From assembly GCA_024637275.1 (NCBI GenBank), contig JAGXFS010000140.1:11562-75561 (forward strand): a stretch of DNA of 64,000 nt, read 5' to 3'. Below the pieces are notes generated by a model. It did no database searches, was not told where the DNA came from, and was given only the letters and a program-made list of their open reading frames with translations. Shown here in pieces: positions 3,689-28,948 of the stretch (position 1 is the stretch's first letter; every line of letters starts with the position of its first letter). The stretch is from Acidimicrobiia bacterium. GTDB taxonomy: Bacteria; Actinomycetota; Acidimicrobiia; Spongiisociales; JAENVV01. The position numbers were made by a program, and so were the translations under genes.

Positions 3689-4231
3689 TCACTTGAGGAT
3701 CTCTTGGCCCTCCACGACCTCGAACGCGTTGTCGCCGAACAGGAACACCGCTCGACCCAACGTGCCAGCACTCTCATCTGGCGGCGTGATCGAAATGACT
3801 TTGTACGACCCGGCGAACGTGTCGCCAACTCCAACGATATGGGTCGTTCCGTTCAGCACCACCTCAACAGTCAAAACCCCATCAGAGTCGGTCTGAATAT
3901 TGCTGACTTTGAAAGTGATCCCGTTGCGGCCACCCGATCCAGGCCCAAAATTGGCCGTTCCATCATCGAGAATCAGGGGACGGAAAGGGTCCCGGGGCTG
4001 GGAGGTTTGTAGGTTGGAAGCGACCACATCTCCAGCAACCAGCTGGGACACGTTGCCCGACGGTGCCGACTGAGGCGCAGCTTCGGCGATCAACGTTGCG
4101 TCGTATGGATTCGCTCCCGCCCCGAAGACCGCCGGAGCGATACCAAACCAGGCGACTGCCAGTCCAAGTCCGACCATGACGATCGCTAATGCGGTTGCCG
4201 ATCCAGATCCTCGCTTTTGCTTATGCATCAT
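3689..4231 (-). CDS. Type IV pilus-associated bitopic membrane protein (PilP-like, last gene of the pilMNOP block)
   Basis: 180 aa with one N-terminal TM helix (ALAIVMVGLGLAVAWFGIAPAVF) and an extracytoplasmic beta-rich domain. Its start overlaps the pilO stop. The assignment is by position only. Confidence 0.4.
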   Translation of the reverse strand: MMHKQKRGSGSATALAIVMVGLGLAVAWFGIAPAVFGAGANPYDATLIAEAAPQSAPSGNVSQLVAGDVVASNLQTSQPRDPFRPLILDDGTANFGPGSGGRNGITFKVSNIQTDSDGVLTVEVVLNGTTHIVGVGDTFAGSYKVISITPPDESAGTLGRAVFLFGDNAFEVVEGQEILK

Positions 4232-4878
4232 CCACCCACCGTGGTCGTGGTCGTCGAGGAATCTGGCGTCGTGGTCGTGGTCGTGGTCTCGTCGACCGGG
4301 ATATCCGGTTCTGCAACCTCTGGCGGGAGCGGAACGACAATCGCCCCCGTCGTGAACGCCATCGCGTTGATCGTAACTGTCAGGGTGTTGACGCCGGTCT
4401 CGCTGTCAATTGCAGGAGCTACGGTGATCCCGTCAACCCGAATCAGCCGATCCAATTCCGCAAGCCCGTACATGTATCCGAGCACTTCGAAATACTGGCC
4501 CGTAACGGTCATAGCGAGCGCCACCTCACGGACTCCGGTATTGCTCTGTTCGCCCGGAGTACTGAAACTGACAGCTTCCCAAACGACGTTGGCACGGTCA
4601 GCCAACACCGACAACTCATCCGTCAAACCGTCAATCTGCGGAAGTTCCGGGATAGACAACAGCATGTTGGCGTTGGCACGGTCATATTCGGGGAGCCGCT
4701 CATTAATCCGATTCAACTCGTTGAGACGTTGACGTAGCGCGTTCTCTTGGGCTTGGAGTGTTGACAGCTCCTGCTCCTGGATTGCGATGTCCTCGCCAAT
4801 CGGGGTCCACAGTAGGAAGTAGAAGGCTGCGCCAACCAAAAGCATCAGTGGAATCGCGATGAGCATGGCCCGTCTCAT
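4228..4878 (-). CDS. pilO: Type IV pilus assembly protein PilO
   Basis: The track ORF 4228..5025 overlaps pilN, so an internal Met (MRRAMLIAIPLMLLVGAAFYF...) was chosen as start. TM helix followed by a coiled coil (ELSTLQAQENALRQRLNELNRINERL). Thr-rich C-terminal tail. Confidence 0.6.
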   Translation of the reverse strand: MRRAMLIAIPLMLLVGAAFYFLLWTPIGEDIAIQEQELSTLQAQENALRQRLNELNRINERLPEYDRANANMLLSIPELPQIDGLTDELSVLADRANVVWEAVSFSTPGEQSNTGVREVALAMTVTGQYFEVLGYMYGLAELDRLIRVDGITVAPAIDSETGVNTLTVTINAMAFTTGAIVVPLPPEVAEPDIPVDETTTTTTTPDSSTTTTTVGG

Positions 4879-5504
4879 TCTGAAATCTCCACGATGCGGG
4901 TCGTCGACCGGTTCGAAAGTGCCTGAGTAGTGAGAGATGCCGACGATGAGAAGTCCACCGTCGAGAAATCGCCAATCGCGGCTTGGGTAATACTTGATAC
5001 CCAAGCACCCCCGAGTGCGGACCACTCAGTTGAGTCGAGGGTTCTAAACCAGGTTGAAGCATCCGGATAGTCAAAGGCGGTACCGGTAAACGTCACCGAC
5101 CCGTAAGTTGGGGTTTCACCGGTGTCGTCTTCGGGAGGAGCGGCGCCGGCCGTCAACGTTCCGACCCAGGTCCGCGGAGGTAAAACCCTCCCGAGGTCGT
5201 TCAAGAATCGACCCCAGTCGACGTCCACCGCCAGAGATTCAGTGATCTGCGAAGAGCGGCTTTCATAAAGATCAAGCGCTGCCGCTGCGTCGGACAACGC
5301 CGCAATGTCATTCTCAAGACGGGCGTTCGCCGCGCGCTGATTGTCGACGTTGTCAACGGCAGCGGACAGAGCCTGCGTTCGGAGGAACCACAACCCACCA
5401 AGGGCCACGAGAAAAATCACGAACAAGAGAACCACAAACGCGGAGCCACGCCGCTGCCGGGCAGCCCGTGCTTGCTCGGGAGGCAGGAGATTAATCGGCC
5501 GCAC
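4875..5504 (-). CDS. pilN: Type IV pilus assembly protein PilN
   Basis: 209 aa with the PilN hallmark N-terminus MRPINLLPPEQ (INLLP motif), then a TM helix and coiled coil. Abuts the pilM stop. Confidence 0.65.
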   Translation of the reverse strand: MRPINLLPPEQARAARQRRGSAFVVLLFVIFLVALGGLWFLRTQALSAAVDNVDNQRAANARLENDIAALSDAAAALDLYESRSSQITESLAVDVDWGRFLNDLGRVLPPRTWVGTLTAGAAPPEDDTGETPTYGSVTFTGTAFDYPDASTWFRTLDSTEWSALGGAWVSSITQAAIGDFSTVDFSSSASLTTQALSNRSTTRIVEISE

Positions 5505-6578
5505 TTATGCTTCTCCCCATAGTGCCAGACCAACCGCCACCGGCAGAACCGGTTGGGTCTGGTTGAGTTCCTCTTCGGTTAAGCCAGTCTTGCCTACGGA
5601 TAGTCGGTCGGAATTCAGCAACGCTACCGGTTGGAGCTGCATGTTGAGCTGGACCCGCATGCGGTTGGCGAGGTGCGGGAGACGCGCTCCGTTGCCAGCG
5701 ATCATGATGGTGTCGATCCCCCCGTCTTCGGCCGACGAAAGATAGAAATCAAGCGAACTGCGCACCTCATCGACCAGTGCGTCAGCCTGGCGGGTCAATG
5801 CAGCCATCGCTACGGCATCCGGGTCATTGCCAGTCGGCATTCCTTCGATAGCCACACCCAGACGCCGCTTCAACTGCTCAGCTTGATCCTGATCAATACC
5901 CAGAGCGTCCGTGACGCTCTGGGTGAAGTCGTTGCCGCCGTTGGGCACAATGCGCAAGAATCGCAACGTGCCGCCTTTGATGACGAGCACCTGCGTCAAG
6001 CTCGCGCCGATATTGACAATCGCCTTCGGGTTGGGACTCAGGTCGATGTCCCCACCGGTGGCCGCCCGCACCAGCGCAAACGCCTGGAGGTCAATAGCCT
6101 TGGGCTTGATGCCGGCTCCACCCAAAATCCGCACCACATCCGAAGCCATCTCCTTCTGGGCGGCCACGACCATGATCGACATGCGGGCTTCGCCTTCTGG
6201 CGTTGAAAACTCCTCCAACGGAACGAAATCCAGGATGGCTTCGTCGATGGGAATGGGAATATATTCTTGCGCTTGGAAAGCCAGCGACTCCGCCAGTTCG
6301 CTCTCCTGCATATAGGGCACAGAGATCTGGCGGACGATCACACGTTGATTGGCAATCCCGACAATCACATTCTTCTTGGGGATCTTCGCCTCTTTGAACA
6401 GCCGGGTTAGGGCGTCCTGGAGCACGGTTTCGTCGACGATCTCGCCGTTCTGAATTGCTCCGGGCGGCAACGCGACTTCTGCGAACTTCTTGAGGACCGG
6501 CGGACCCTTTTTCGAGGTCTCAACAAGCGCAGCTCGTACGGCACTCGTTCCGATGTCCAGACCGACATTGGCGGTCAT
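5505..6578 (-). CDS. pilM: Type IV pilus assembly ATPase-like protein PilM (actin-like fold)
   Basis: Start set at the internal Met of MTANVGLDIGTSAVRAALVE, the PilM/FtsA-like phosphate-1 motif. It is preceded by AAGGAG on the minus strand. The track ORF runs to 6608. Confidence 0.8.
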   Translation of the reverse strand: MTANVGLDIGTSAVRAALVETSKKGPPVLKKFAEVALPPGAIQNGEIVDETVLQDALTRLFKEAKIPKKNVIVGIANQRVIVRQISVPYMQESELAESLAFQAQEYIPIPIDEAILDFVPLEEFSTPEGEARMSIMVVAAQKEMASDVVRILGGAGIKPKAIDLQAFALVRAATGGDIDLSPNPKAIVNIGASLTQVLVIKGGTLRFLRIVPNGGNDFTQSVTDALGIDQDQAEQLKRRLGVAIEGMPTGNDPDAVAMAALTRQADALVDEVRSSLDFYLSSAEDGGIDTIMIAGNGARLPHLANRMRVQLNMQLQPVALLNSDRLSVGKTGLTEEELNQTQPVLPVAVGLALWGEA

Positions 6579-6691
6579 TCTTACGCTCCTTGGCGGCCAG
6601 CACCGCAATCCCTTGCCCGTAGGCTACAACATCGTAATTACAAACGTGTTGTTTTGGAAGCGTAGCCGCGTGCGAGCGATCGTCGCAAGAA

Positions 6692-7489
6692 CTAGCCGAT
6701 GCCGAGATAAGCCCGGGCGATCTCATTGCCGAACGCAATCGCCAGCCAGGCACCAGCAACCATCGATGGGCCAAAAGGAATTGCGTCCTTGCGACTAACT
6801 CGCCTGGTGATAAGGAGAAGAATCGACACTCCCCCACCGATGAAGACCGCCCCGAACACCGCTACAACCAAAGCCGCCCAGGACACGTATCCAACGAACA
6901 TACCGAGGAAAAACGCCAGCTTCACATCACCCATCCCGAAGCCGGCCGGTACGAGCAAAGCCAGGATGAGAAAACCACCAAAATATGCGAGTGCGGTGAT
7001 CCAGGATCGACCGTAGGAACCAAGCCCACCTTCCGCAACTGCCCCCGCCCCGAGCAGCAGAGCACCAACTAGTGCTCCCGGGAACAGAATCCGGTTGGGG
7101 ATCCGTTTGGTGTCAAAATCGATGAGCGCCAAGGCCAACGTAACGGCGGCAAACCACAAATAGGCGACGACCGTCCAGTCCAGACCGACGACGAGGTAGA
7201 CGCCGTAAAACAGCGCTGCATTGGCCGCCTCTACGAGCGGGTACCGCGCCGAAATAGGAGTGCGACAGGAACGGCATTTCCCGCGCAAGAGAAGCCAAGA
7301 CAGGACCGGGAGGTTGTCATACGGCTTGATCTCCGTCCCACAGTTCGGGCAAGCCGACGGCGGGCTGACCACAGACAGACCTGCCGGGATTCGATAGACG
7401 ACCACGTTCAGAAAAGAACCAACGACGAGCCCAACCACGATGAACAGATACGGCGCGACTAGCTCAAGGTTGTCCAAATACAGATCCAT
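6692..7489 (-). CDS. pilD: Prepilin peptidase (A24 family, PilD)
   Basis: Zinc-binding Cys tetrad (CPNCGTEI...CRSCRTPI) followed by about 8 TM helices and the DxxxxxG region. Start placed at the internal MDLYLDN; the track ORF extends to 7636 in an unlikely N-terminal extension. Confidence 0.8.
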   Translation of the reverse strand: MDLYLDNLELVAPYLFIVVGLVVGSFLNVVVYRIPAGLSVVSPPSACPNCGTEIKPYDNLPVLSWLLLRGKCRSCRTPISARYPLVEAANAALFYGVYLVVGLDWTVVAYLWFAAVTLALALIDFDTKRIPNRILFPGALVGALLLGAGAVAEGGLGSYGRSWITALAYFGGFLILALLVPAGFGMGDVKLAFFLGMFVGYVSWAALVVAVFGAVFIGGGVSILLLITRRVSRKDAIPFGPSMVAGAWLAIAFGNEIARAYLGIG

Positions 7490-7539
7490 GTGTCCTACTC
7501 GATCGGTCGTGGAGCCTACCCCAAGACCGATCAGTTCAA

Positions 7540-8007
7540 CTACCAACCATTCTGGCAATCGGCGAGTAGGCCGAAGGTCATCGTGGCATCCTGGCCAAAG
7601 TAGGTGCCGGCCGCAGAACCAGATCCCTCGTCCCACAAACAGAACCAGGTACCCGAGTTGCTTTGCGCGACGAACATCACAGCCTGGTCGGCCAGTCCAT
7701 CGGCATTGGCGAGGATCACAAATCCCACCTCGTCCGGGGTCGGCGCCAGCCCGGCGACATACGCGATCCCGGCGTGCACGCGGTCGAGTTCCGGTACTCC
7801 GAAGTTGTAGTCGGCGTTGGTATCGGCATAAATCACCTTGGCCGCAGACAAAGAGTTGCGTAGATCGCTCTGCACAGCTCGGTCCTAGGCCCTGACTCTG
7901 GCTCCTAAGAACGTTGGTATCGCAATGGCAATGAGAATGGCAATAATGAGAACCACCACCATCAGCTCTACCAACGTGAAGCCTTCTTCGTCATGTTTCA
8001 GACGCAT
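7540..8007 (-). pseudogene. Type IVa major-pilin paralog interrupted by an in-frame amber codon at 7885..7887
   Basis: Reading the minus strand from the ATG at 8005..8007 (preceded by GAGGAG) gives MRLKHDEEGFTLVELMVVVLIIAILIAIAIPTFLGARVRA-TAG-DRAVQSDLRNSLSAAKVIYAD..., all in one frame. The intact paralog at 8205..8720 has Gln at the aligned position (GARERAQDRAAQSNLRN). Confidence 0.6.
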
Positions 8008-8019
8008 GAGCTCCTCGCT

Positions 8020-8050
8020 TTCAAATTGTTATATATAGAGAGTTGTATCG
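8020..8050 (-). promoter_or_regulatory. AT-rich putative promoter (-10-like TATATA) for the downstream pilin/pilD transcription unit
   Basis: The stretch ttgttatatatagagagttgtat is strongly AT-rich in an otherwise ~65% GC window. It lies about 20-40 nt upstream of the pilin RBS and start, just after the upstream terminator. Confidence 0.25.
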
Positions 8051-8105
8051 GCGCCAGACAGCTGATGCTGTAGCTCCAAGACGGAGTAGCGGACGCCGGG
8101 TCGAG

Positions 8106-8140
8106 AGAGTATTGGCACCAACTCCACAAAAAAGGGACCG
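8106..8140 (-). terminator. Rho-independent terminator following the intact pilin gene
   Basis: Perfect hairpin aaagggaccgcc-cgaa-ggcggtcccttt. On the minus strand it is followed by a T-run (TTTTTTGTGG). It sits 65 nt downstream of the pilin stop. Confidence 0.55.
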
Positions 8141-8204
8141 CCCGAAGGCGGTCCCTTTCGAATCCGAGCTACCTGACGAATCAGGCAGATCTCAGTTTGG
8201 TTTC

Positions 8205-8720
8205 TTACCAGTCAGTGGCGGCGCACTCGGCCCGGGTGAAGCTCAAGTCGACACCGGTCAGGTCCGACCCGTAGGTGGTACCCGAACCGTACGTCCCGTT
8301 CGTCAACACATCTGAGATACAGAAGCTCGTGCCCGAGGCCGAGTCCGTCGTGAAGGTGATGACCTGACGGTCAGCTGCCGCACTGTTGTTCTCGACAACG
8401 TAGCCAACTTCGTTGGCTCCGACGGTGATGGCTCCAGCAACGAAGGTCAAGCTGGGCTCGATAGCGTTCAGGAGAGCCGGCGTAACATCGGCGGCAGCAC
8501 CATTGGAGAAGTCTTCTTCGTCGGTGTAGTGCACCTTGGCCGAAGTCAACGCGTTGCGAAGGTTCGACTGGGCGGCACGGTCCTGAGCACGCTCACGAGC
8601 ACCGAGGAAGGTCGGGATGGCGATGGCGATAAGAATGGCAATAATCAAAACAACGACCATCAACTCGACGAGGGTGAAACCCTCTTCTTTGTTCAGGCGG
8701 TTACGCATCCATGAAATCAT
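8205..8720 (-). CDS. pilA: Type IVa major pilin (class III signal peptide)
   Basis: 171 aa. Leader MISWMRNRLNKEEG, then FTLVELMVVVLIIAILIAIAIP (cleavage after Gly, Glu at +5). Two Cys near the C-terminus (FCISD...AECAATDW), probably a disulfide-bonded loop. AAGGAG lies 7 nt upstream of the ATG. Confidence 0.8.
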   Translation of the reverse strand: MISWMRNRLNKEEGFTLVELMVVVLIIAILIAIAIPTFLGARERAQDRAAQSNLRNALTSAKVHYTDEEDFSNGAAADVTPALLNAIEPSLTFVAGAITVGANEVGYVVENNSAAADRQVITFTTDSASGTSFCISDVLTNGTYGSGTTYGSDLTGVDLSFTRAECAATDW

Positions 8721-8888
8721 TATGGGACTCCTTATAAGTGTTCAATGTTCCCTGCAGGCCGTCTTGACCTACGTAGGTGTTATCGACGCCCCGGCGCCGA
8801 GACTTAAGAACTAATCCACGATTCTTTAACGAGCCAGGGACCCGCAAAAAGCGAATCCCTGTCTCCGGAATTGGACCGGTTAGCTGGT

Positions 8889-10115
8889 TTACTGGACGAG
8901 GTTGACGATATTGAACATCGGCATATAGAGGGCGATCAACATGCCACCCACGGTCGCACCCAAAACGACGATAAGGAGCGGCTCGATGAGGCTGGTGAGG
9001 CCTTCGACCATCGCCTCGACCTCAGAATCGTAGAAGTCGCCAACCTTCTCGAGCATCGTGTCGAGGGCACCCGTTTCCTCCCCGACGGCGATCATCTGAA
9101 CGACCATCGGCGGAAACACCGGATGATCTCTTAGTGGGGCCGCAATCGACTCACCTTCAGCGACGGACGCCTTGACATCCTGGACGGCTCGAGCCACCAC
9201 GGCGTTGCCGGCGGTGTCAGACACAATATCCATCGCCTGGAGGATTGGCACCCCGGTCTTGGTTAGCGCTGCCAGCGTGTGCGAGAACCGAGCAATAGCC
9301 GTCTTATGAATCAGATTTCCGAAGATCGGCAGCTTCAACTTGATGGCGTCGAAGGTAGATCGTCCACCGTCGGTGGCGATCCACCTCTTGAACGACACCA
9401 GCGAACCAACCGACACAATGATCACGGCCCACCAGTAGGTGGTGACCAGCTTCGAGAGGAGCAACAAGAACTTGGTTGCACCGGGGAGCTCTCCCCCGAG
9501 GTCCGCGTATAGCGCCTCGAACATCGGTACCACGAAGATGATCATGGCCGCGACGATGAAGATAACCAGTCCGAACACCGCGATCGGATACATCATGGCC
9601 GACTTGATTTTGGACCGCAGGGCGACCTGTGCCTCGAGAGTATCGGCGAGCCGCAACAGCGTGTCGTCGAGCACACCACCCACCTCACCAGCCTTCACCA
9701 TGGCGGTGTACAGCTGGTTGAAGGCCTTCGGGTGTTGTTCCATGGCCGCTGAGAGGCTCGTACCACGTTCGACGTCAGCTTTGACCAGGTCGATGATGTC
9801 GGAGAGTGCCTTGTTCTCGGTCTGGTCCGAGAGGATACTGAGCGACCGTAGCAGCGACAGGCCCGCATTGATCATCGTGGCGAACTGCCGCGAGAAAATC
9901 GCCACGTCCTTGGCCTTCACGCGATCGGTGAGGCCCGGAATCTTGATCTCTTTCTTCAAACCAGAGTTCGCCGCGGCCGTCTCGGACAGACTGAGCGGGC
10001 TCAGGCCCTTGCCCCGCAACGCTGTCGCGGCAGCCGTCTGCGTGGAGGCTTCGATCGTGCCCTTCTTGACTTTGCCGTCCGAGTCTTTGGCCCGGTATTC
10101 AAATGTTGTAGCCAT
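8889..10115 (-). CDS. pilC: Type IV pilus platform protein PilC (GspF family)
   Basis: 408 aa with two GspF-type repeats and three TM segments. Lies between pilT and the pilin gene. Confidence 0.85.
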   Translation of the reverse strand: MATTFEYRAKDSDGKVKKGTIEASTQTAAATALRGKGLSPLSLSETAAANSGLKKEIKIPGLTDRVKAKDVAIFSRQFATMINAGLSLLRSLSILSDQTENKALSDIIDLVKADVERGTSLSAAMEQHPKAFNQLYTAMVKAGEVGGVLDDTLLRLADTLEAQVALRSKIKSAMMYPIAVFGLVIFIVAAMIIFVVPMFEALYADLGGELPGATKFLLLLSKLVTTYWWAVIIVSVGSLVSFKRWIATDGGRSTFDAIKLKLPIFGNLIHKTAIARFSHTLAALTKTGVPILQAMDIVSDTAGNAVVARAVQDVKASVAEGESIAAPLRDHPVFPPMVVQMIAVGEETGALDTMLEKVGDFYDSEVEAMVEGLTSLIEPLLIVVLGATVGGMLIALYMPMFNIVNLVQ

Positions 10116-10125
10116 GCTCTATCTC

Positions 10126-11694
10126 CTAAGCCACGCGACCGACAAGTCGCTGTAGATCTTCCAGGTCAGAGCACCGCTCCGCGGCGAGCTCGTAGGTAAT
10201 AATGTTTCGTCGCACCAGGTCCGCCAGGGACTGGTCCATGGTTTGCATGCCCCACTTTCCGCCGGCTTGCATGGCGGTGGCGATCTGGTGGTTCTTTCCT
10301 TCGCGAATCAGGTTTCTAACCGCAGGGGTTGCGACCATCACTTCGATGGCTGGAACCCGGCCACGGCCGTCACGGGTAGGCAACAGTTGCTGGGTTACGA
10401 CCGCTTGCAGCGTGGCTGCCAGCTGAACCCGGACCTGGCCCTGCTGGTGCGAAGGGAACACGTCGATCATACGATCGATCGTCTGGGGGGCGTCCTGGGT
10501 ATGAAGTGTGGCAAAAACCAGGTGGCCGGTTTCGGCTGCGGTCAGGGCGGTAGAGATGGTTTCCAGATCTCGCAGCTCACCTACCAGGATTACATCGGGG
10601 TCCTGGCGGAGGGCATGGCGCAGCGCCATGTTGAACCCCATGGTGTCTGCGCCGACCTCACGCTGGTTGACGATCGCCTTCTGATGGTGGTGTAGAAACT
10701 CGATGGGATCTTCAACGGTAAGAATGTGGCAGGCGCGTCGGCGGTTGATGAGGTCGACGATCGACGCCAGGGTGGTCGACTTACCGGAACCGGTAGGTCC
10801 CGTGACGAGGACGAGGCCACGCGCATATTCTGCGAACTCACCGACGACGGTCGGCACACCGAGTTCCTCAAGCGGCTTGATTACGTCCGGAATGGCGCGG
10901 AACACCGCCCCAACCGCGTCACGTTGAAAGAAAACGTTAAGACGGAAACGACCTTTGCCCGGCAACGGATGTGAGGCGTCGAGTTCTAGCGACTCTTCCA
11001 GCTTCTCACGCTGCTTCTCAGTCAGGATCGCATAGATCATGCGCCGGATGTCTGCCGGCATCATGATGCCAAAGTCCGTGAGTTGCCGAAGCTCGCCGTT
11101 GACGCGGATCTGAGGAGACGAGCCAGCGGTGATGTGGAGGTCAGATCCACCCTGGTCGACCAGGATCGTGAGCAACGTGTTGACATGAAGTGCCGGCTCG
11201 GCGACCTCGATGTCCGGCACGGCGCCGCCCATGCCGGGGACCCGGGTAACCGGGATTTCCTCCGGTCCATGCATGAACGAGATGGCCCGCTGGATGGCTT
11301 CCTTGGTAGCCAGAGCGAGGGTGATCTTCTTACCGGTGATCTGTTCGAGGCGCCGATGGCGTTCGGCGTCGAAGGGGTCAGCGACCGCAACCGTGAGGAC
11401 GTTATCCACCAATCGGACGGGAATCGCCAGGAGGGCGGCGGAGTCGTCGCCACTCAAGGCGGCGATTGCCTCTGGGTCGAAAAGCTGATCGTCGAGTTCG
11501 ACGTATTCCATCCCGACCCGGGCAGCAACGGTTTTGAGGAGGTCTTCTTCACGCACGAGGCCGTCATCGGTAAGGATCTTCGCCATCGGCGTACCGGTGG
11601 TTTGCTCTTTGGCCAACACTGTCTCAAGCACATCTTTTGAGAGAAGGTGCCGGTCAACGAGGAGCTCGCCAAGTTTTCGCGATGCTGAGTTCAT
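10126..11694 (-). CDS. pilT: Pilus retraction ATPase PilT with an N-terminal GspE-N/MshEN-like extension
   Basis: The C-terminal ~350 aa carry PilT hallmarks: SDLHITAGSSPQIRVNGEL, Walker A GPTGSGKST, the Asp-box, His-box ATLHTQD and the PilT-specific AVRNLIREGKNHQI. The first ~170 aa contain two repeats resembling the GspE N-terminal domain (KLGELLVDRHLLSKDVLETVLAKEQ and MAKILTDDGLVREEDLLKTVAARVGMEYVEL). Confidence 0.8.
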   Translation of the reverse strand: MNSASRKLGELLVDRHLLSKDVLETVLAKEQTTGTPMAKILTDDGLVREEDLLKTVAARVGMEYVELDDQLFDPEAIAALSGDDSAALLAIPVRLVDNVLTVAVADPFDAERHRRLEQITGKKITLALATKEAIQRAISFMHGPEEIPVTRVPGMGGAVPDIEVAEPALHVNTLLTILVDQGGSDLHITAGSSPQIRVNGELRQLTDFGIMMPADIRRMIYAILTEKQREKLEESLELDASHPLPGKGRFRLNVFFQRDAVGAVFRAIPDVIKPLEELGVPTVVGEFAEYARGLVLVTGPTGSGKSTTLASIVDLINRRRACHILTVEDPIEFLHHHQKAIVNQREVGADTMGFNMALRHALRQDPDVILVGELRDLETISTALTAAETGHLVFATLHTQDAPQTIDRMIDVFPSHQQGQVRVQLAATLQAVVTQQLLPTRDGRGRVPAIEVMVATPAVRNLIREGKNHQIATAMQAGGKWGMQTMDQSLADLVRRNIITYELAAERCSDLEDLQRLVGRVA

Positions 11695-11821
11695 GGCTTC
11701 TAGTTCCCCTTATCGATCACATTTTGTGGGTCAATGTATCTTCGGCAGGCCTCGCGGCCGACTTAATGGATAATCGAGGTGGCTTGGAACTTTGACCCGG
11801 CGGTGGTCCCGGCGGGACGCG

Positions 11822-13504
11822 CTACACAGTAACGCGGAGGATCTCTTCGATCGAGGTATCTCCGCGACGTGCCTTGATGAGGCCGTCCTGGCGGAGCGGA
11901 CGCATACCTTCCTGCACGGCTACCTTCTTGATGGAGTCCGTGGTCGCCTGGTCTACGGCCATCCGCTCGATCGTTTCTGAGACGAGCATGAGCTCATGCA
12001 ACGCGAGTCGCCCCCGGTACCCGGTGTCACCACACCGTGCGCAGCCGCCCGGCTTGAACAGTTCGGGAACTTCGTCCCCAAACTCGTCGAACTGCCAACC
12101 AACCCTGGCCAAGGCGTCCTTGGTCGGTTGATAGGGGGTCTTGCACTCCCCACACAACCGGCGGGCCAGGCGCTGCCCGAGGACGGAATCGACAGCTGAC
12201 CCGACGAGGAATGGTTCGACGCCCATCTCGATCAGGCGGCTGATGGCCGACGGAGCATCATTGGTATGCATCGTCGAGAGCACCAGGTGACCGGTAAGAG
12301 CAGACTCGATGGCGATCTCGCCGGTCTCCTGGTCCCGGATCTCACCAACGAGCATGATGTCGGGGTCCTGACGCAAGAACGAGCGCAACGCCGACGCGAA
12401 GGTCAGGCCGGCCTTCTTGTTCACCTGGACCTGATTGATTCCGTTGAGGCGGTACTCGACCGGATCCTCACAGGTCACGATGTTGACGTCGGGCTGATTC
12501 AGCACATTCAGCGTTGAATAGAGCGTTGTTGACTTACCGGAACCAGTCGGGCCACAGCACAGGATCGTTCCATACGCCTTGTTATATGAGGAAGCATATC
12601 GCTCGAGGGTGTCTGGCTCGAAACCAAGTTGTTCCAGTTCGAGGGTGGCCGTTGAATTGTCGAGAATACGCATGACGATCTTCTCGCCGTAGATGGTGGG
12701 AAGGGATGAAACGCGCAAGTCGATCGTTTTCGTTCCTCCCACTCGCAGGCTGATACGACCGTCTTGGGGTCGACGTCGTTCCGCAATGTCCATGTCGGCC
12801 ATGATCTTCAAACGACTGACCACGGCGTTACTGACCGATCGCGGGGTCCGCATAATCTCGTGCAACACACCGTCCACCCGGAACCGCACCCGCAGGTCCT
12901 TGTCCGTTGGCTCGATGTGGATGTCAGACGCCCGCTCTGCCGCAGCCTTAGCGATAAGCATGTTGACCAATTTGACGATGGGAGCTTCTTCGGTGGACGC
13001 TTCGACCGCATTGAGGTCTTGCGTTTCCATCTCGTCTTCGCCAAAGCCGGCGAAGTCGGTGACCGAGTCGTCGAGGCCGGCATTGTTTGCAATGGCGTTT
13101 TCAACGTCGCTTCGTGTTGCAACCTTGGCGATGACGTCGCGACCCGAGATCGCCCGAATGTCATCGATCGCCAGCACATTGGCGGGGTCAGACAGCGCTA
13201 CGACGAGCTTATCGTCTTCAAAACCGATCGGGATAGCCGCATACCGGCGAGCGAGGGCATCGGGAATAAGCGCCGTAGCGGCGGGATCGATGGTGATTTC
13301 CTTGAGGTCGACGAACTCAACGCCGATCGCCTTCGCCAACGTGCGAACCAGGTCACGCTCGGAGACAATCTTCTCCTCGACCAGCACCCGCCCAAGCGGA
13401 CGGCCAGTCTCGGCCGCCATGGCCAGACCTTTCTCAAGGAGTTCCTGAGTTAGCAGCCCCTCCTCAAGGAGGAGGCTGGCGAGGTGTCCGCTATCACGAG
13501 TCAT
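11822..13504 (-). CDS. pilB: Type IV pilus assembly (extension) ATPase PilB, GspE family
   Basis: 560 aa. GspE-N domain at the N-terminus (LASLLLEEGLLTQELLEKGL...), Walker A GPTGSGKSTT, and the tetracysteine zinc motif (CGECK...CARCGDTGYRGR) typical of PilB/GspE. Confidence 0.85.
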   Translation of the reverse strand: MTRDSGHLASLLLEEGLLTQELLEKGLAMAAETGRPLGRVLVEEKIVSERDLVRTLAKAIGVEFVDLKEITIDPAATALIPDALARRYAAIPIGFEDDKLVVALSDPANVLAIDDIRAISGRDVIAKVATRSDVENAIANNAGLDDSVTDFAGFGEDEMETQDLNAVEASTEEAPIVKLVNMLIAKAAAERASDIHIEPTDKDLRVRFRVDGVLHEIMRTPRSVSNAVVSRLKIMADMDIAERRRPQDGRISLRVGGTKTIDLRVSSLPTIYGEKIVMRILDNSTATLELEQLGFEPDTLERYASSYNKAYGTILCCGPTGSGKSTTLYSTLNVLNQPDVNIVTCEDPVEYRLNGINQVQVNKKAGLTFASALRSFLRQDPDIMLVGEIRDQETGEIAIESALTGHLVLSTMHTNDAPSAISRLIEMGVEPFLVGSAVDSVLGQRLARRLCGECKTPYQPTKDALARVGWQFDEFGDEVPELFKPGGCARCGDTGYRGRLALHELMLVSETIERMAVDQATTDSIKKVAVQEGMRPLRQDGLIKARRGDTSIEEILRVTV

Positions 13505-13510
13505 GATGCC

Positions 13511-14545
13511 TTAGTGGGAGTCCTGAGTTTCGCCGAGTTCGCGAGCTAATGCGCTCAACCCGCCCCGGCGGCGGCTCAGATTGGCGGCCCGCTCACTGAG
13601 CGTGCCTTCGAGATCGTCTGTGGCATCGTAGTCGGAGGTGACAATCTCAACGGAGTCGTCGTCGCTCCCCGCCTCTCCGATAACTCCCGAGAGAACGGAC
13701 TGGAGCAGATCGTCGTCGTTGACGTCGTCACCATCGTTGGATGGGGCGTTGTCATCTTCGTAGACGAGGTCGGTTCGATTCATTGAGAACGTCCCTGACC
13801 CGCCCGAAGACGCCGACAATCCGAGATCGTCATCGCTATAGGTCGGGGCAGCCTCGAAACGTTCTTCGGTCACGGAAACAAGTTCCTGCCGGACCAGATT
13901 GGCCATCGCCTTGGCGACGACGAACTCTGACGTGCCGGTACGATGAGCTACTTCGGCGATTGTGCCGTGCCCACCCAACGCGGCCAGAAGCTTCCATGTT
14001 TCGATCTTGAGGGTCACATCACTGGCACCCTCTGGCAAGGTCTGCGCCATACGCAACCCGAACTTCGTTCCGGGGATGACCTCTTCAATATCAGCCCACT
14101 GCTCGGCCCGATGATCGGCGTCGGCAAGACAAATCTCGATGTCGACTACCTCTCCTGAGTCATAGCGCGGCGACACTTCATCGCCGAAGTCGAACGTACC
14201 CCGGCCAGGTCGGCCCAGGCGAAAAAGCACCTCGGTGCCCTGTTCGGCAAGGAAGTCGCGCAAGTCGGCGTGGGTGTGGCCTTCGATAAGCACCTCCGCC
14301 ACCGTCTGCTCGCGACGCTCAACCCGCATCCAGCCGTCCGTGTCCACGAATCCGGCATTGAGTAGATCGGTGCGCAGGTCTTCATCGCGTCGAGTGGTCG
14401 CATACGCGAGTTTCCCGCTCGATAAATAGATCTTTCCCTCAAGTCCACCGGCTTCAACGCGCAAACAGCCGGATTTCTGTGAGCGTGCCAGCATACGCAG
14501 CACCTCACTGAGAGGAATCGATTCGAGGCGTCCCGTCAGCGCCAT
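13511..14545 (-). CDS. DUF4388 (PATAN-like) domain protein with a long acidic low-complexity C-terminal tail
   Basis: The N-terminus GRLESIPLSEVLRMLARSQKSGCLRVEAGGLEGKIYLSSGKLAYA matches the DUF4388 signature (LxDxLQxL...KTGxL...GxIyfxxG). The C-terminal third is D/E/S-rich. The stop lies only 6 nt from the pilB start. Confidence 0.6.
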   Translation of the reverse strand: MALTGRLESIPLSEVLRMLARSQKSGCLRVEAGGLEGKIYLSSGKLAYATTRRDEDLRTDLLNAGFVDTDGWMRVERREQTVAEVLIEGHTHADLRDFLAEQGTEVLFRLGRPGRGTFDFGDEVSPRYDSGEVVDIEICLADADHRAEQWADIEEVIPGTKFGLRMAQTLPEGASDVTLKIETWKLLAALGGHGTIAEVAHRTGTSEFVVAKAMANLVRQELVSVTEERFEAAPTYSDDDLGLSASSGGSGTFSMNRTDLVYEDDNAPSNDGDDVNDDDLLQSVLSGVIGEAGSDDDSVEIVTSDYDATDDLEGTLSERAANLSRRRGGLSALARELGETQDSH

Positions 14546-14607
14546 GTTGTGACTCCTTAGTAGTCCTGCATCAATCTTCGGTAGATCGAGACAGCGCCTT
14601 GAGAGCT

Positions 14608-15393
14608 TTAGGGGCGACGAGCGGCGGCGGCCATGGCGTCATGGTCGGCCGATACGCCGGTCCAGATCGTGAATGCCGCCATTGCTTGCCCTATCAGCAT
14701 GTCGAGCCCAGGACTACAGGGGATTCCAAGTCGACCCGCTTCCAGCACTGCGGGGGTTGTCGCATCGCCATAAGGCATGTCGATGAATCCCGTGGCCGCG
14801 GCCAGGAGCCCGTCTGGCAGGTTTTCGCCGGCCATTCCGATGAGCGTCGCGTTAACGAGCACGGCCCCACTCACGGGTTTCTCCCACGGAACGAATACCG
14901 CATCGAGGTCGAGTTGCTCGAGCAGCAGTCGGGCGCGTCGCTCGTTGCGGGTGCTGACAGCCAAGTCGACGGATCCCGGATGAGCGTCAACAGCAACCAG
15001 GGCAGCCGCCGCCGCTCCACCAGCTCCGAGAACTACGACTGAATCAGACATTCCAATCCGATCAAAGGCGTACGCAACACCTGCGACATCGGTGTTTTCG
15101 GCTACGAGGGTTCCATCCGGTTCCCGCCACCAGGTGTTGGCTGCACCCAGGCGCTCGACCAGTTCGGAACGCCGATCGGCCAACGCAGCAGCCAGATGCT
15201 TATGGGGAGTGGTGATGTTCGCACCGGTCAAGGACCCGGACCGAACCTCGTCAGCTGCGGTCCGGAGGCCGTCACCATCAACCTGCCGGGCCGAATATTC
15301 GCCCGCGATCCCCGCCGCGCGTAGTCCGGCTCGGTGAATCGCCGGCGATCGAGAATGGCTGACCGGGTCGCCGAGAACGACCAATTTGATCAC
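14608..15393 (-). CDS. aroE: Shikimate dehydrogenase
   Basis: 261 aa (GDPVSHSRSPAIHRAGL...NITTPHK), the shikimate DH substrate-binding signature. Sits in the aro cluster. Confidence 0.8.
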   Translation of the reverse strand: MIKLVVLGDPVSHSRSPAIHRAGLRAAGIAGEYSARQVDGDGLRTAADEVRSGSLTGANITTPHKHLAAALADRRSELVERLGAANTWWREPDGTLVAENTDVAGVAYAFDRIGMSDSVVVLGAGGAAAAALVAVDAHPGSVDLAVSTRNERRARLLLEQLDLDAVFVPWEKPVSGAVLVNATLIGMAGENLPDGLLAAATGFIDMPYGDATTPAVLEAGRLGIPCSPGLDMLIGQAMAAFTIWTGVSADHDAMAAAARRP

Positions 15394-16460
15394 GGGAAGA
15401 GGCCCTCGGCCTTCGCCTGATCCTTCCAGGTCAGAAACTGGTTGTAGTCAGCCGTGAAACTGTGGGAGCCATCAGCGGCGGTTAGCACGTAATAGATGTA
15501 GTCGGTCTCCGGAGGATCGGCGATCGCCTCGAGCGACGCCAACCGGGGACCTCCGATGGGAGTGGGTGGGAGACCGAGGTTCTGATAGGTGTTGTACGGC
15601 GAGTCGAACTCGAGGTCGGCGAGCGTAAGTCCGATCCCCCGGGCGTCCATGGCGTACAGCACGGTGGCATCGATCTGGAGCGGCATACCAACGTCCATGC
15701 GGTTGACGATCACCGAAGCGACGTCGGGGCGATCGGCATCTACTTTTGTCTCGGCTTCGATAATCGACGCCGCGATCAAGCCTTCATAAATCGTATAGCC
15801 CCGGTCATTCCAGGCCGTCCAGTCGATCGACTCCACCCGACTCTCCATGGTACGCGCGAGTTTTCCGAGAATCGATGCAGCGCTGGCATCCGTCTCGAAT
15901 TCATAGGTGTCGGGAAAAAGCAAACCCTCCCAATCCTGAATCGACTCGGGAGGCAGTTCAAGGAGCGAGCTCTGGACTGCCCCACTGAGTAGGGCTTCTG
16001 CGAAGTCAGCTTCGCCATACGATGTCTGATTGGCTATCTCGGTGAGAACTTCCCCGATCCGCAAGCCTTCACGGACGGTGATTCGATAAGTCTCGAAGGC
16101 CGGGCCAGCCAGGAAGGCCGCGATGACGTCGTCGGTTGCCATCCCGGTGGTCAGCTCATACCGACCGGCGCCGAGACGCTGCGTATAGCCGCCGTCCTCG
16201 ACCGCGCTCTCAAACACCCGCGCCGACCCGATGACATCGGCCTCCTGGAGAAGGGAAGCGATGGTACGGGCCGATGCCCCGGCCGGGACTTCGACCGTCA
16301 CGGGAACTCCAACCGTCGCCGTCGCCTGTACGGTTGTCTCGGTAGGGGTAAACAGGTCCGAGAACATGGCTTTTCCGGCCAGACCGAGGCCTGCCAACGC
16401 AGCCAGGACCACTACGACGGCTAGAACGCTCCGATTCCGGGGTTCTTCAAACGAGGTCAT
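15390..16460 (-). CDS. mltG: Endolytic murein transglycosylase MltG (YceG family)
   Basis: 356 aa with an N-terminal TM helix followed by a YceG-like domain. Conserved position between ruvX and aroE. Confidence 0.8.
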   Translation of the reverse strand: MTSFEEPRNRSVLAVVVVLAALAGLGLAGKAMFSDLFTPTETTVQATATVGVPVTVEVPAGASARTIASLLQEADVIGSARVFESAVEDGGYTQRLGAGRYELTTGMATDDVIAAFLAGPAFETYRITVREGLRIGEVLTEIANQTSYGEADFAEALLSGAVQSSLLELPPESIQDWEGLLFPDTYEFETDASAASILGKLARTMESRVESIDWTAWNDRGYTIYEGLIAASIIEAETKVDADRPDVASVIVNRMDVGMPLQIDATVLYAMDARGIGLTLADLEFDSPYNTYQNLGLPPTPIGGPRLASLEAIADPPETDYIYYVLTAADGSHSFTADYNQFLTWKDQAKAEGLFP

Positions 16461-24619: not shown

Positions 24620-26122
24620 TTATGGCGTGCAGTAGGCCGTGACTGGCTCCGAGTTCGGAGATACATCCCGCCAGTCGCCTGGCTCAGGAATGAACGAGTC
24701 AGCGAGTGCCGGGTCAAACGTGAATCCCTGGATAACCCCTTCAGTCGGAGGACGGAAGTGGATTTCCAGGCGGTTACCCGTCTGGTCCTTGTAGCCATAC
24801 ATGGCACCGTAGATCACCGACTGGTTGGTTGACGTCACGATGCCGCTTGAGAAGACCAGGTGGTGCACCTCGCCGGGCACCGACTGGAAGTTCTGGCCAA
24901 GCGTCAATGTTCCGGTAGCTTTTTTCATGACGATGATTACGGAGGCCGGTTCGCCCGAGGGAGTCGAGCCCTTCTTCGGTGTGCCTCGAATCTCAAACGA
25001 GCCATCAACGATCAGAACGAAGTTGTCCGTGAAGGTGTTCTGATGGAAGTTGACGACACTTCCGTCCCCCGCCGCGACCACATGGACACCTTTGAGGTTA
25101 TTGCCGTTGGCCGCCACATAAGCACGGAAGTCCGCCAGGTTGGCATAGTAAGTGATCGTATAGCCCACGTAGTCACCTGCGTTGAAAGTGAAGACCGGGA
25201 GCGACACGTCTGGCACCGGCTGCATGTCATTGGCGTTCGGGATCAAAGTGGCGCCACCAATGTTCGATCCAGCCTTGAGAGCTAGGTCAGCAATCTTGAC
25301 TTCGCCACCGAGCACCGTCGCTTTCTTGAAGTATGAGTTCAGATAGGACGAGATGGTGCCGTCGGACCGGATTTGCACAGTCGACCCATATTGGGTTGAC
25401 GCAGACAGATCGTTGACACGACCTTGCACGTTGACATCCGATTGAACGAACACGTTCGAACCGCTGTCGATAGTCAGGTCACCGTATACCGTCATGGTGC
25501 CCTCGCCGCGATAGGGGTCATCGTTCTTGAAGATACTGGTTTGAGCCGAAATCGTGACGTCTTCACCCGAGTAGGCGTCACCGTAGATCGTCTTGAAGTT
25601 CGCTCCGACGATTCCACCCTTGGCTGCAAAGAGCGCATTGGTGAAGCCACCAAGAGGCACCAATTCGACGTCAAGCAACACCTTCTTGGCGACTCCCTTC
25701 GACGAGGTGCGGCTTGGTGCCCACCCCCACGACTCGAGGTGGTACTTAAGGTTATCGACCTTGGTGACTGCCACCCAATATTCGCCCTGACCCTCCACGA
25801 CGCCTTCGGCAACCGTCTCCAGGGTCTGCACGTCGCAGATCCCACCGGCCAGGATCCCCGAGGAGGCAAACCCGACGCTCTGCGCGTCCGTGCGCCAGCT
25901 GTCGACGTCGTAGGTGAGCAAAGCCATCGCTTCTTTCGCTCCTGCCTCGGCGACGTTTAACGCCTGAGTACGGTTACGGTCGAACGAGACCTCATCCAGT
26001 TCGTGAACCGCCAACGAATACCATGTGGCACCGAGCGCAAACACGATGAACGACACCGACAGAGCGGTGATAATACCGATGCCATCCTCGTCAGATCTCA
26101 GTTGTTCGATGAATTTGCGCAT
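24620..26122 (-). CDS. PilX/TadG-like pilus-associated protein (N-terminal PilX_N-like TM segment, large beta-rich extracellular region)
   Basis: 500 aa. N-terminus DEDGIGIITALSVSFIVFALGATWYSLAV resembles the PilX N-terminal domain. The remainder is rich in G/S/T/N/D/V repeats, suggesting a beta-helix-like fold. Last gene of a three-gene prepilin operon. Confidence 0.5.
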   Translation of the reverse strand: MRKFIEQLRSDEDGIGIITALSVSFIVFALGATWYSLAVHELDEVSFDRNRTQALNVAEAGAKEAMALLTYDVDSWRTDAQSVGFASSGILAGGICDVQTLETVAEGVVEGQGEYWVAVTKVDNLKYHLESWGWAPSRTSSKGVAKKVLLDVELVPLGGFTNALFAAKGGIVGANFKTIYGDAYSGEDVTISAQTSIFKNDDPYRGEGTMTVYGDLTIDSGSNVFVQSDVNVQGRVNDLSASTQYGSTVQIRSDGTISSYLNSYFKKATVLGGEVKIADLALKAGSNIGGATLIPNANDMQPVPDVSLPVFTFNAGDYVGYTITYYANLADFRAYVAANGNNLKGVHVVAAGDGSVVNFHQNTFTDNFVLIVDGSFEIRGTPKKGSTPSGEPASVIIVMKKATGTLTLGQNFQSVPGEVHHLVFSSGIVTSTNQSVIYGAMYGYKDQTGNRLEIHFRPPTEGVIQGFTFDPALADSFIPEPGDWRDVSPNSEPVTAYCTP

Positions 26123-26140
26123 GTTGGTTTTTTTCGCTTT

Positions 26141-26776
26141 CTAACAGTTGGCTGCGTTGGGGGTCCAAATATTGCGACCTGCTACTTCGGTTGATTCCAG
26201 GCGAGGGCTGATCCGGTCCAACGGACTCCGATCGATCCACACTGAGATCCGGACAACTTTGCCGTAGCTCGGCGAGGCCGACGGAAGGCCAGTGTTGTTG
26301 ATCTCGTTTCTGCCCTGGTTTTCAAACAGGAACTGGGGCGTGCCCAGGTCGACCGCAACAATCTCGTTGACGACGGTTTCGTTGACGGTTATAAACGTCA
26401 GGCCGCCATCACCGGATCGCTGCAGGTCCGTGTTGGCCCCGTCACCATCGACGTCAACCAACCGATAGATGATATGACGGGTGTCAGCCGGCGGGATCGG
26501 ATTGGAACGAGTAATGAACGACAGCGTGTTGGAAGCATCGCCAGGTGCGGGGATGCAAATCGTCTCGGCGCCGCGGAGCTCTCTATCCACCCTCTCCAAA
26601 ATCAAACGAATATCGTCGTTGGTCCTCGCCGAGTTTTCAATATCACGGGTAGCTCGCAACGAGGACGACAGCACGTTCGAGAACACGATGCTCACGATGG
26701 TCAACAGGAAGATGGCAACCATCAGTTCCGTGAGGGTGAGACCCCGTTCGTCGGTCTTGAGGCGGTCGAAGATCAT
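26141..26776 (-). CDS. Minor pilin / pseudopilin with a prepilin-type N-terminal cleavage-methylation domain
   Basis: Start at the internal MIFDRLKTDERG, then LTLTELMVAIFLLTIVSIVF (class III signal peptide, Glu at +5). The track ORF extends to 26809. The start overlaps the stop of the upstream giant pilin. Confidence 0.65.
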   Translation of the reverse strand: MIFDRLKTDERGLTLTELMVAIFLLTIVSIVFSNVLSSSLRATRDIENSARTNDDIRLILERVDRELRGAETICIPAPGDASNTLSFITRSNPIPPADTRHIIYRLVDVDGDGANTDLQRSGDGGLTFITVNETVVNEIVAVDLGTPQFLFENQGRNEINNTGLPSASPSYGKVVRISVWIDRSPLDRISPRLESTEVAGRNIWTPNAANC

Positions 26777-26777
26777 G

Positions 26778-28832: not shown

Positions 28833-28948
28833 ACCTACCAAGTATCGGTCAGACTGCCCGTCAACCTTGACCTTTTTCGGGCCTGGCGGCCGGTCTAACC
28901 CCGCCTGCCACGATGAGACTAGTTACCCAGGGGTTCTCGCCTGCCTGG

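Follow-up and report, generated by a model that had tools for sequence, protein, structure and literature searches.

The PATAN gene and its junction with pilB

We know of few studies on the type IV pili of Actinomycetota and of none on how their motors are controlled. Here we describe a gene that stands at the head of a type IVa pilus cluster in contig JAGXFS010000140.1 of an Acidimicrobiia bacterium. We analyzed a 64,000-nucleotide stretch of this contig, which we refer to as the window. The gene lies between aroE and pilB, the gene for the extension ATPase, and encodes a protein with an N-terminal PATAN domain (the domain formerly termed DUF4388), a winged-helix-like domain and an acidic tail (Table 1). 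An original prediction, made from the sequence alone, had described this open reading frame (ORF) as a DUF4388 protein and as a possible partner of PilB. The 344-aa frame and all of the peptide strings quoted for it are present in the sequence.

The start codon is separated from aroE by a spacer of 62 nt and is preceded by a Shine-Dalgarno sequence, with AGGAG at the equivalent position upstream of the gene in related loci. As had been claimed, only 6 nt separate the PATAN stop codon from the pilB start. The sequence AAGG overlaps this stop codon and could be the ribosome-binding site of pilB. Because the gap is 6 nt and is overlapped by a Shine-Dalgarno-like sequence, translational coupling of the two genes is plausible.

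Searches with the protein returned 47 close homologues in one case and 110 in another. Where a source was named, it was always a metagenome-assembled genome of Acidimicrobiia or Actinomycetota; the nearest relatives are Acidimicrobiia metagenome-assembled genomes. A profile search of the full library matched 376 clusters (50% identity) at E ≤ 1e-30 and 8037 such clusters at E ≤ 1e-3. Conservation was assessed on an alignment of 84 homologues.

Table 1. Features of the window discussed in the text, numbered from its first nucleotide.
Feature	Position	Strand	Remarks
PATAN-winged helix-acidic tail protein, coding sequence	13511..14545	-	344 aa, stop codon included; start codon ATG 14545
PATAN (DUF4388/PatA_N) domain	14048..14545	-	residues 1-166
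Alpha-helical insertion ('alpha-clip')	14213..14389	-	residues 53-111, inside the PATAN domain
Winged-helix-like domain	13859..14047	-	residues 167-229
Acidic C-terminal tail, predicted disordered	13514..13858	-	residues 230-344
Tail motif 1, DDDLLQSVLSGV	13682..13717	-	residues 277-288; core DDDLLQSVLSG, 277-287
Tail motif 2 (C-terminal helix), LSERAANLSRRRGGLSALARELG	13532..13600	-	residues 316-338; LSERAAxLxRRRGxLxALAREL
Shine-Dalgarno AAGGAG	14553..14558	-	7 nt 5' of PATAN ATG 14545, read from the sequence
Stop-start junction	13505..13513	-	TAA (13511-13513), GGCATC, then pilB ATG at 13504
Promoter-like element CTCAAG-N16-CCGAA	14577..14603	-	32 nt 5' of the PATAN start codon, in the aroE-PATAN spacer
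Second promoter-like element ATTAAG-N16-CCGAA	11741..11767	-	pilB-pilT spacer
Third promoter-like element TTAAG-N16-TCGATA	8781..8807	-	upstream of pilA
Fourth promoter-like element TCAAGG-N16-ACCGATAC	28844-28870	-	10 nt 5' of the start ATG of a distal pilin-like gene (distance 14 kb)
pilB, extension ATPase	11822..13504	-	560 aa, N-terminal MshEN domain; Pfam T2SSE E = 9.5e-137, MshEN E = 2.6e-20
pilT, retraction ATPase	10126..11694	-	522 aa, extra N-terminal MshEN domain; TIGR01420 478 bits (cut-off 319)
pilC, platform protein	8889..10115	-	Pfam T2SSF twice, E = 4.7e-68
pilA, major pilin candidate	8205..8720	-	N_methyl motif and pilin models
Second pilin	7540-8007	-	pilin of cluster 3689..8007
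pilD	6692-7636	-	Pfam A24_N_bact and Peptidase_A24
pilM	5505-6608	-	Pfam PilM_2
pilN	4875-5504	-	Pfam PilN
pilO	4228-5025	-	Pfam PilO
180-aa ORF closing the cluster after pilO	3689-4231	-	matches no Pfam or NCBIfam family
Second pilin-related cluster	24620-28831	-	14 kb from the main pilus locus

Conservation of the PATAN-pilB pair

We examined 16 Acidimicrobiia genome loci, and the order aroE-PATAN-pilB was found in all 15 that had downstream DNA. The two genes are 6–35 nt apart in these 15 loci, while identity to the window falls to 49% for the PATAN protein and to 74% for PilB. The full cluster also occurs at 43% identity (L021) and in a 1.7-Mb genome (L104); in the close clade as a whole, the gap ranges from about 1 to 35 nt. 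A metagenome scan seeded with PilB yielded 80 loci, and the 53 of these with at least 1 kb of upstream DNA were counted. A gene for a protein combining PATAN with a winged helix-turn-helix (wHTH) lies upstream of pilB on the same strand in 27 of the 53, directly adjacent in 17. Its frequency declines with PilB identity: 9/9 loci at 65% or above, 6/10 at 56–64% and 12/34 at 49–55%.

Retention in 15/15 genome loci, at PATAN identities down to 49%, and in 9/9 of the closest metagenome loci supports the conclusion that the pairing is not fortuitous. Conservation of the neighborhood thus stands for the close Acidimicrobiia loci examined and, among metagenome loci, for those with a PilB identity of 65% or more, but it is not universal, as some syntenic loci have no such gene (see below).

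Some of the upstream PATAN-wHTH proteins lack the helical insertion of the PATAN domain, some carry Pro/Lys/Ala-rich linkers in place of acidic ones, and some end in other C-terminal helices, for example NRGLLLKFLSSVR. They nonetheless share one plan, in which a PATAN-wHTH core is followed by a long linker of low complexity and by a short, conserved C-terminal helix, the sequence of which differs between subfamilies. Thus, an architecture of PATAN-wHTH core, long disordered linker and short C-terminal helix extends beyond the acidic-tail family.

Larger PATAN-wHTH proteins (630 to >1100 aa) are encoded 1–2 kb upstream of other pilB genes (L042 1536-3425, L054 1174-3330, L088 3-3443). These have very long Glu/Pro/Ala-rich linkers and a different, likewise conserved C-terminal helix (for example ...RIIEGIQKL, ...KKIIDDLKKM). 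They are separated from pilB by one further gene, which in L088 and L099 is aroE.

A promoter-like element precedes the PATAN gene

The spacer between aroE and the PATAN gene contains the only exact match in the window to CTCAAG-N16-CCGAA. Across 103 loci there are 30 matches, and the spacer is N16 in every one. All but one of the 30 lie directly upstream of a PATAN gene on the same strand; the remaining match is upstream of a pilT. The element precedes the PATAN gene alike in loci that contain pilB and in reduced loci that lack it (described below). Further promoter-like elements were found in the pilB-pilT spacer, upstream of pilA and upstream of a distal pilin-like gene (Table 1), and among 27 related loci, 17 have a match to a relaxed version of the motif between pilB and pilT. 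The four elements of the window make up one class, T(C/T)AAG-N16-(G)CCGA(A/T).

In the pilus cluster of Rubrobacter, promoters of the WhiG type (-35 TAAA, -10 GCCGATAA) drive three transcription units, and Actinoplanes pilus genes are stated to be transcribed by sigma factors of the WhiG-like kind; actinobacterial pilus clusters have been reported to be under an RsiG-WhiG switch controlled by cyclic di-GMP (c-di-GMP) (Schumacher et al., PMC8325347). The PATAN element, CTCAAG-N16-CCGAAGAT, approximates the WhiG/sigma-28 consensus, from which the class as a whole is 2–3 mismatches away. The window elements therefore resemble WhiG/sigma-28-like promoters. We identified no sigma-factor gene in the window. 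Additionally, a scan of 8000-15600 for consensus sigma-70 promoters and intrinsic terminators found no promoter-like sites and no terminators on the minus strand and was therefore uninformative.

The elements support a PATAN gene that is the first of its own unit, together with pilB, and that would stay in a pilus-type regulon even in the reduced loci. The original placement of the gene at the head of the pilus unit is thereby strengthened. Similar to the WhiG/FliA (sigma-28 class) pilus clusters of Rubrobacter radiotolerans, R. xylanophilus and Actinoplanes missouriensis, the cluster appears to be organized in several units. In those species a flagellar-type promoter serves each unit, and here two-box elements stand before PATAN-pilB, pilT, pilA and the distal pilin cluster. 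With these elements, the published connection of pili with WhiG-type sigma factors, known from Rubrobacter and Actinoplanes, would reach Acidimicrobiia as well. A difference is that the Rubrobacter pilus cluster paper (PMC8325347) names no PATAN gene.

The PATAN domain and its helical insertion

The DUF4388 signature survived a profile search: Pfam PF14332 matches residues 4–150 (E = 7.1e-18; 65.2 bits, cut-off 25), and the match spans profile positions 1–121 of 122. The precomputed PF14332 label is present on all but 2 of 111 homologues. In current Pfam, this family has been renamed from DUF4388 to PatA_N, and DUF4388 is the PATAN domain. The original statement that DUF4388 lacks a defined biochemical function can therefore be corrected. 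In Synechocystis, PixE's PATAN domain binds to both the N-terminal half of PilB1 and the PilC N-domain, localizes to the inner membrane and reverses phototaxis (10.1101/2021.06.11.447907). Binding and membrane localization of this kind are known from Synechocystis PixE and its relatives only. Since DUF4388 is a PATAN domain with published binding, a PATAN partner for PilB is, contrary to the original proposal, not unexplored in principle; cyanobacterial work has already explored it. The same source reports DUF4388-GspE_N fusions and a requirement for the PATAN protein SgnC in Myxococcus social motility.

An AlphaFold2 model of the protein has a mean predicted local distance difference test (pLDDT) score of 81.5, with values above 90 for residues 1–230. 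In this model the PATAN domain is a beta-rich core broken by a four-helix insertion (helices 56–64, 69–76, 82–85 and 92–111). Comparisons found no solved structure resembling the domain. Like the cyanobacterial PATAN-receiver (PATAN-REC) regulators (PixE, PixG, LsiR and PilG-type Tax of Synechocystis; Anabaena PatA), the protein thus carries a PATAN domain at its N terminus, with an alpha-helical insertion, and shares, by analogy, their functional tie to the extension motor of type IV pili. Unlike them, it belongs to Actinomycetota rather than Cyanobacteria and has no receiver: Response_reg (the CheY-like receiver) gave no match at E ≤ 0.1, and where PatA-type proteins carry a C-terminal receiver, the model predicts 115 disordered residues save for two short helices, which are conserved in the acidic tail. 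The genetic setting differs as well. The Acidimicrobiia gene is the first cistron before pilB, whereas cyanobacterial PATAN-REC genes are found in chemotaxis-like or photoreceptor operons.

The protein is also similar to SgnC, MXAN_3211 and MXAN_4965 of Myxococcus xanthus, receiver-less PATAN proteins tied to pilus-dependent motility, the latter two being flagged as candidates in the SgmX/SopA study; they belong to the stand-alone and multi-domain PATAN proteins found in this species and in other environmental bacteria. Compared by description, these Myxococcus proteins are not reported as first cistrons adjacent to pilB. In the literature we searched, we found no mention of PATAN proteins of Actinomycetota or of the PATAN-wHTH-acidic-tail architecture. 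What is new is a receiver-less PATAN form at a fixed operon position in Acidimicrobiia; the type of regulator and its principle are known from cyanobacteria.

According to 10.1101/2021.06.11.447907, citing Makarova et al. 2006, the 'alpha-clip' is an optional PATAN insertion of paired helical hairpins like those that begin GspE/PilB N-domains. Our comparisons agree with this description. By hhalign, insertion residues 50–103 are related to PilB residues 1–60 (probability 80%, E = 1.5e-5) and the insertion is related to the PilT N-terminus (probability 58%, E = 1e-4). Relatives that lack exactly the insertion segment occur upstream of other pilB genes.

This likeness raises the possibility of a c-di-GMP-responsive switch, in which the insertion would bind c-di-GMP or pair with the MshEN domains of the ATPases and so choose between extension and retraction. 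Consistent with such a switch, both ATPases of the window exceed the cut-off (38) of NF053729, the model of the MshE-type c-di-GMP motif, PilB with 44.6 bits and PilT marginally with 38.3, and RsiG-WhiG control by c-di-GMP is reported for actinobacterial pilus clusters (PMC8325347). The PATAN protein itself, however, matches neither NF053729 nor Pfam MshEN (PF05157), both of which are matched by PilB and PilT. In the hhalign register, the MshEN motif, whose consensus we take to be RLG, has its first Arg opposite the nearly invariant Asp56 of the PATAN protein. On these grounds c-di-GMP binding is not inferred for the insertion, and in its canonical form it is not supported. Additionally, across loci the presence of the insertion does not follow that of the long, MshEN-bearing PilT. 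Thus, we regard a c-di-GMP switch as highly improbable.

In a related proposal, the insertion would copy, as decoy or partner, the c-di-GMP-binding MshEN hairpins that both PilB and PilT carry at their N-termini, and would let the protein pair with either ATPase or share a c-di-GMP molecule with it. The protein would then be a c-di-GMP-dependent selector of extension or retraction, anchored elsewhere by its C-terminal helix and superimposed on WhiG-type transcription that is itself under c-di-GMP control. We judge this very doubtful. If it were true, retention of the gene beside pilD where the local pilB is lost would mean that the protein serves any MshEN-bearing secretion ATPase.

The winged-helix-like domain

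Residues 167–229, a domain overlooked in the original prediction, fold as a winged helix in the AlphaFold2 model. Its weak sequence and fold matches are all to MarR/ArsR/SmtB-type proteins. The best sequence match in the Protein Data Bank has E = 0.005, and the wHTH profiles are all below threshold (Rrf2 15.2 bits, cut-off 30; HTH_27 13.7 bits, cut-off 22.2).

The fold would suit a DNA-binding transcription factor, with the wHTH bound at the pil promoter region, the PATAN domain sensing a signal and the operon autoregulated. Several observations speak against this, those on charge and on the upstream spacer indirectly. Besides the sub-threshold profiles, the protein is strongly acidic, with a net charge of -34 overall and -1 for the wHTH segment, and K212 and R219 are the sole basic residues of the putative recognition helix. 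When the aligned upstream spacers were inspected by eye, no conserved palindrome was apparent; the sole conserved element was the motif described above, which has the two-box layout of a promoter. Finally, the authors of the PixE study hold DNA binding by PatA-type proteins to be unlikely (10.1101/2021.06.11.447907). A role as a transcription factor is therefore a distinctly unlikely explanation.

The acidic tail carries two conserved motifs

The original prediction described a poly-acidic tail. Residues 230–344 are indeed acidic and predicted to be disordered, but the term is overstated, since the longest acidic run is DDD, two conserved helical motifs interrupt the tail and it finishes basic, in the RRR helix. 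Counted over residues 229–344, there are 20 D, 8 E, no K, 7 R and 16 S, giving a net charge of -21, with 24% D+E and 38% D+E+S. The pLDDT falls below 50 at residues 236–274 and over most of 291–307.

Across the 84 homologues, the tails are 65–351 aa long with net charges of -9 to -79 (median -28). Every one is net negative, and the acidity is a conserved property rather than chance. Conservation is 0.26–0.29 for linker columns, 0.53–0.59 for the two motifs and 0.54–0.71 for the folded core. Motif 1 (conservation 0.59, occupancy 1.00) contains L281, which is invariant in the 84 sequences; a helix is predicted at residues 278–288, and in distant orthologues the motif reads FLESVFS. In motif 2, R326 and R327 are nearly invariant, the predicted helix covers residues 316–338 (pLDDT 64–68) and the distant form is GLLRRRRMG. 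Both motifs are kept in the proteins of the reduced loci. With a poorly conserved linker and motifs as conserved as the core, the tail has the pattern of a flexible spacer that bears docking peptides rather than that of a functional polyanion.

We also considered the C-terminal helix as a membrane-targeting element. Its hydrophobic moment (0.5–0.8) is comparable to that of the Escherichia coli FtsA helix but does not exceed the maximum of the folded core, and is not distinctive.

It had been suggested that the protein might act as a chaperone of pilus extension. In such a reading it would be a PilB chaperone or holdase, and its polyanionic tail would hold the ATPase in solution or imitate nucleic acid. 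Tight coupling to pilB and the acidity of all 84 tails would fit such a role. However, no match to a chaperone-family profile was found for the PATAN protein, and the tail varies five-fold in length and is conserved only at its two short motifs, as in a linker with docking peptides. Related subfamilies, furthermore, have Pro/Lys/Ala-rich linkers that are not acidic. With an acidic disordered linker bearing docking-type motifs, nothing indicates chaperone activity, and we consider this explanation extremely improbable.

A proposed receiver-less PATAN adaptor of the pilus motor

We propose, with about even confidence, that the protein is a receiver-less PATAN adaptor which is made together with PilB from a WhiG-like promoter and docks on the pilus motor, while its linker and C-terminal helices reach a second site. 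Anatomy, linkage and the conserved upstream element are observed; binding is taken over from work on cyanobacteria, and what the tail does is deduced. By analogy with Synechocystis PixE, the folded N-terminal 230 residues would bind, at the pilus base, to the N-terminal region of PilB, to the cytoplasmic N-domain of PilC or to both. This contact would determine whether the extension ATPase engages the platform, or at which site. Judging by anatomy, the 6-nt spacing of stop and start would give synthesis roughly matched to that of PilB; because of this matching, the protein would be a constitutive partner rather than a switch controlled by phosphorylation. The acidic linker, again by its anatomy, would be a flexible spacer. 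The LLQSVLSG and RRRG-L-ALAREL helices might serve as docking peptides, and their target could be a second partner such as another pilus protein, the membrane or the core of the protein itself, in the last case with an autoinhibitory effect.

An adaptor of this kind has functional counterparts. The FimX-PilZ-PilB complex of Xanthomonas acts on the PilB N-terminus. In Myxococcus, SgmX, FrzS and SopA are described as cytoplasmic factors that stimulate or localize the extension ATPase. All of these differ from the PATAN protein in having unrelated folds, and none is known to be a translationally coupled upstream cistron of pilB.

Several points weigh against the adaptor proposal. The role given to the tail motifs is guesswork, and the C-terminal helix is no more amphipathic than helices of the folded core. 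The cyanobacterial binding data come from PATAN-REC proteins of another phylum and may not transfer. Other points come from loci in which the PATAN gene and pilB are uncoupled. We inspected eight distant orthologues (38–47% identity over the core), of which one has the full cluster and seven lie in aroE (or mltG)-PATAN-pilD-aroC loci. At the locus, the contigs of these seven contain no pilB, pilT, pilC, pilin or pilMNO genes. In the loci of the order aroE-PATAN-pilD-aroC (L017, L018, L019, L020, L022, L023), the pilus remnants are the PATAN gene and the prepilin peptidase gene. Conversely, syntenic aroE-pilB loci without the PATAN gene occur (L038, L071, L084, L089 and L105). The aroE-pilB gap is about 100–300 nt in the first four, where the family model finds no PATAN ORF; in L105 the spacer consists of 311 nt of tandem repeats, with no PATAN remnant and with the promoter motif kept.

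The original notion of a dedicated PilB partner is thus not sustained. With seven of the eight distant orthologues lacking a local pilB, the protein cannot depend on an adjacent PilB, and the aroE-pilB loci without the gene indicate that the pilus machine can dispense with it. Since the gene occurs without pilB and pilB without the gene, the PATAN gene is an accessory of the pilus locus, dispensable and not strictly tied to an adjacent pilB. The reduced-locus proteins nevertheless look functional, as their core and the two tail motifs are kept and the promoter-like element still precedes the gene. Because pilD, which all type IV filaments need, is retained, these genomes may encode a filament ATPase elsewhere. 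Since orthologues persist beside pilD without an adjacent pilB, the protein probably targets something that type IV filament machines have in common, not this particular PilB.

The same loci bring up an alternative, in which the protein is a general regulator of polarity, division or the envelope, or a regulator of another type IV filament (Tad/Flp or competence pili), and merely shares with the pilus genes an ancestral position and promoter class, so that PilB would not be its specific target. The seven orthologues that retain core, tail motifs and promoter-like element without pilB fit this, as do the aroE-pilB loci that lack the gene. The pilD of reduced loci is also frequently short (164–186 aa, Peptidase_A24 only), and the divisome proteins ZipN and SepF are interaction partners of PatA in Anabaena (PMC7380572). 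In the close clade, on the other hand, the PATAN gene abuts pilB wherever pilB is at the locus. PATAN-wHTH genes also recur upstream of pilB in far more distant loci, including ones unlinked to aroE, and the gene that stays beside PATAN in reduced loci, pilD, is required by every type IV filament, which points to filament biology. We therefore consider this alternative unlikely, though it ranks next after the adaptor. The reduced aroE-PATAN-pilD loci do raise the question of a PATAN role beyond the classical pilus.

Mechanistic data linking PATAN to pili come mainly from cyanobacterial PATAN-REC regulators, although PATAN proteins are numerous, as the cluster count given above indicates. The Acidimicrobiia family offers a minimal, receiver-less PATAN at a fixed operon position beside its likely target. 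Its 230-residue core is modelled with confidence, and its two short conserved peptides are open to mutation. It is thus a convenient system for asking what PATAN does to PilB and PilC.

Two side observations concern the uncoupled loci. Passage from a full cluster to a reduced locus would take two separate deletions. In L105, positions 7690-8000 hold about eight tandem copies of a 12-nt unit (GCCGGCCGAGAA / GCCAGCCGAGAA), followed by the promoter-like motif.

The remainder of the pilus cluster

The window contains a complete type IVa pilus set (PilB, PilT, PilC, prepilin, prepilin peptidase and PilM/N/O), located between aroE and aroC in the order alaS-ruvX-mltG-aroE ... aroC-aroB-efp-nusB. The PilT, PilM, PilN, PilO, T2SSF, N_methyl and A24 models all exceeded their cut-offs; PilB scored 652 bits against TIGR02538, slightly below the cut-off of 675.65. 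PilT matches Pfam MshEN at residues 61–139. Since this domain also matches the MshE-type c-di-GMP motif model, the retraction ATPase may be c-di-GMP-responsive as well. In related loci PilT is either long and MshEN-bearing or short (~387 aa). The 180-aa ORF that closes the cluster has a hydrophobic N-terminus and may be PilP-like or another component of the alignment complex.

Codon 41 (7885-7887) of the second pilin is an in-frame TAG; CAG (Gln) stands at this place in PilA and in two close relatives, L005 and L006. The aligned N-terminal 70 residues are otherwise 100% identical to those of L005 and L006, and the TAG is either a nonsense mutation, making the gene a pseudogene, or an assembly error.

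In the second pilin-related cluster, two ORFs (222 aa and ~683 aa) bear N_methyl prepilin motifs. The true start of the ~683-aa ORF is ATG 28831, with the leader MRLLHRVPNDDRG/FTLVEA, and a 500-aa ORF with no Pfam family comes next. The products of this cluster are probably minor pilins or a tip adhesin.

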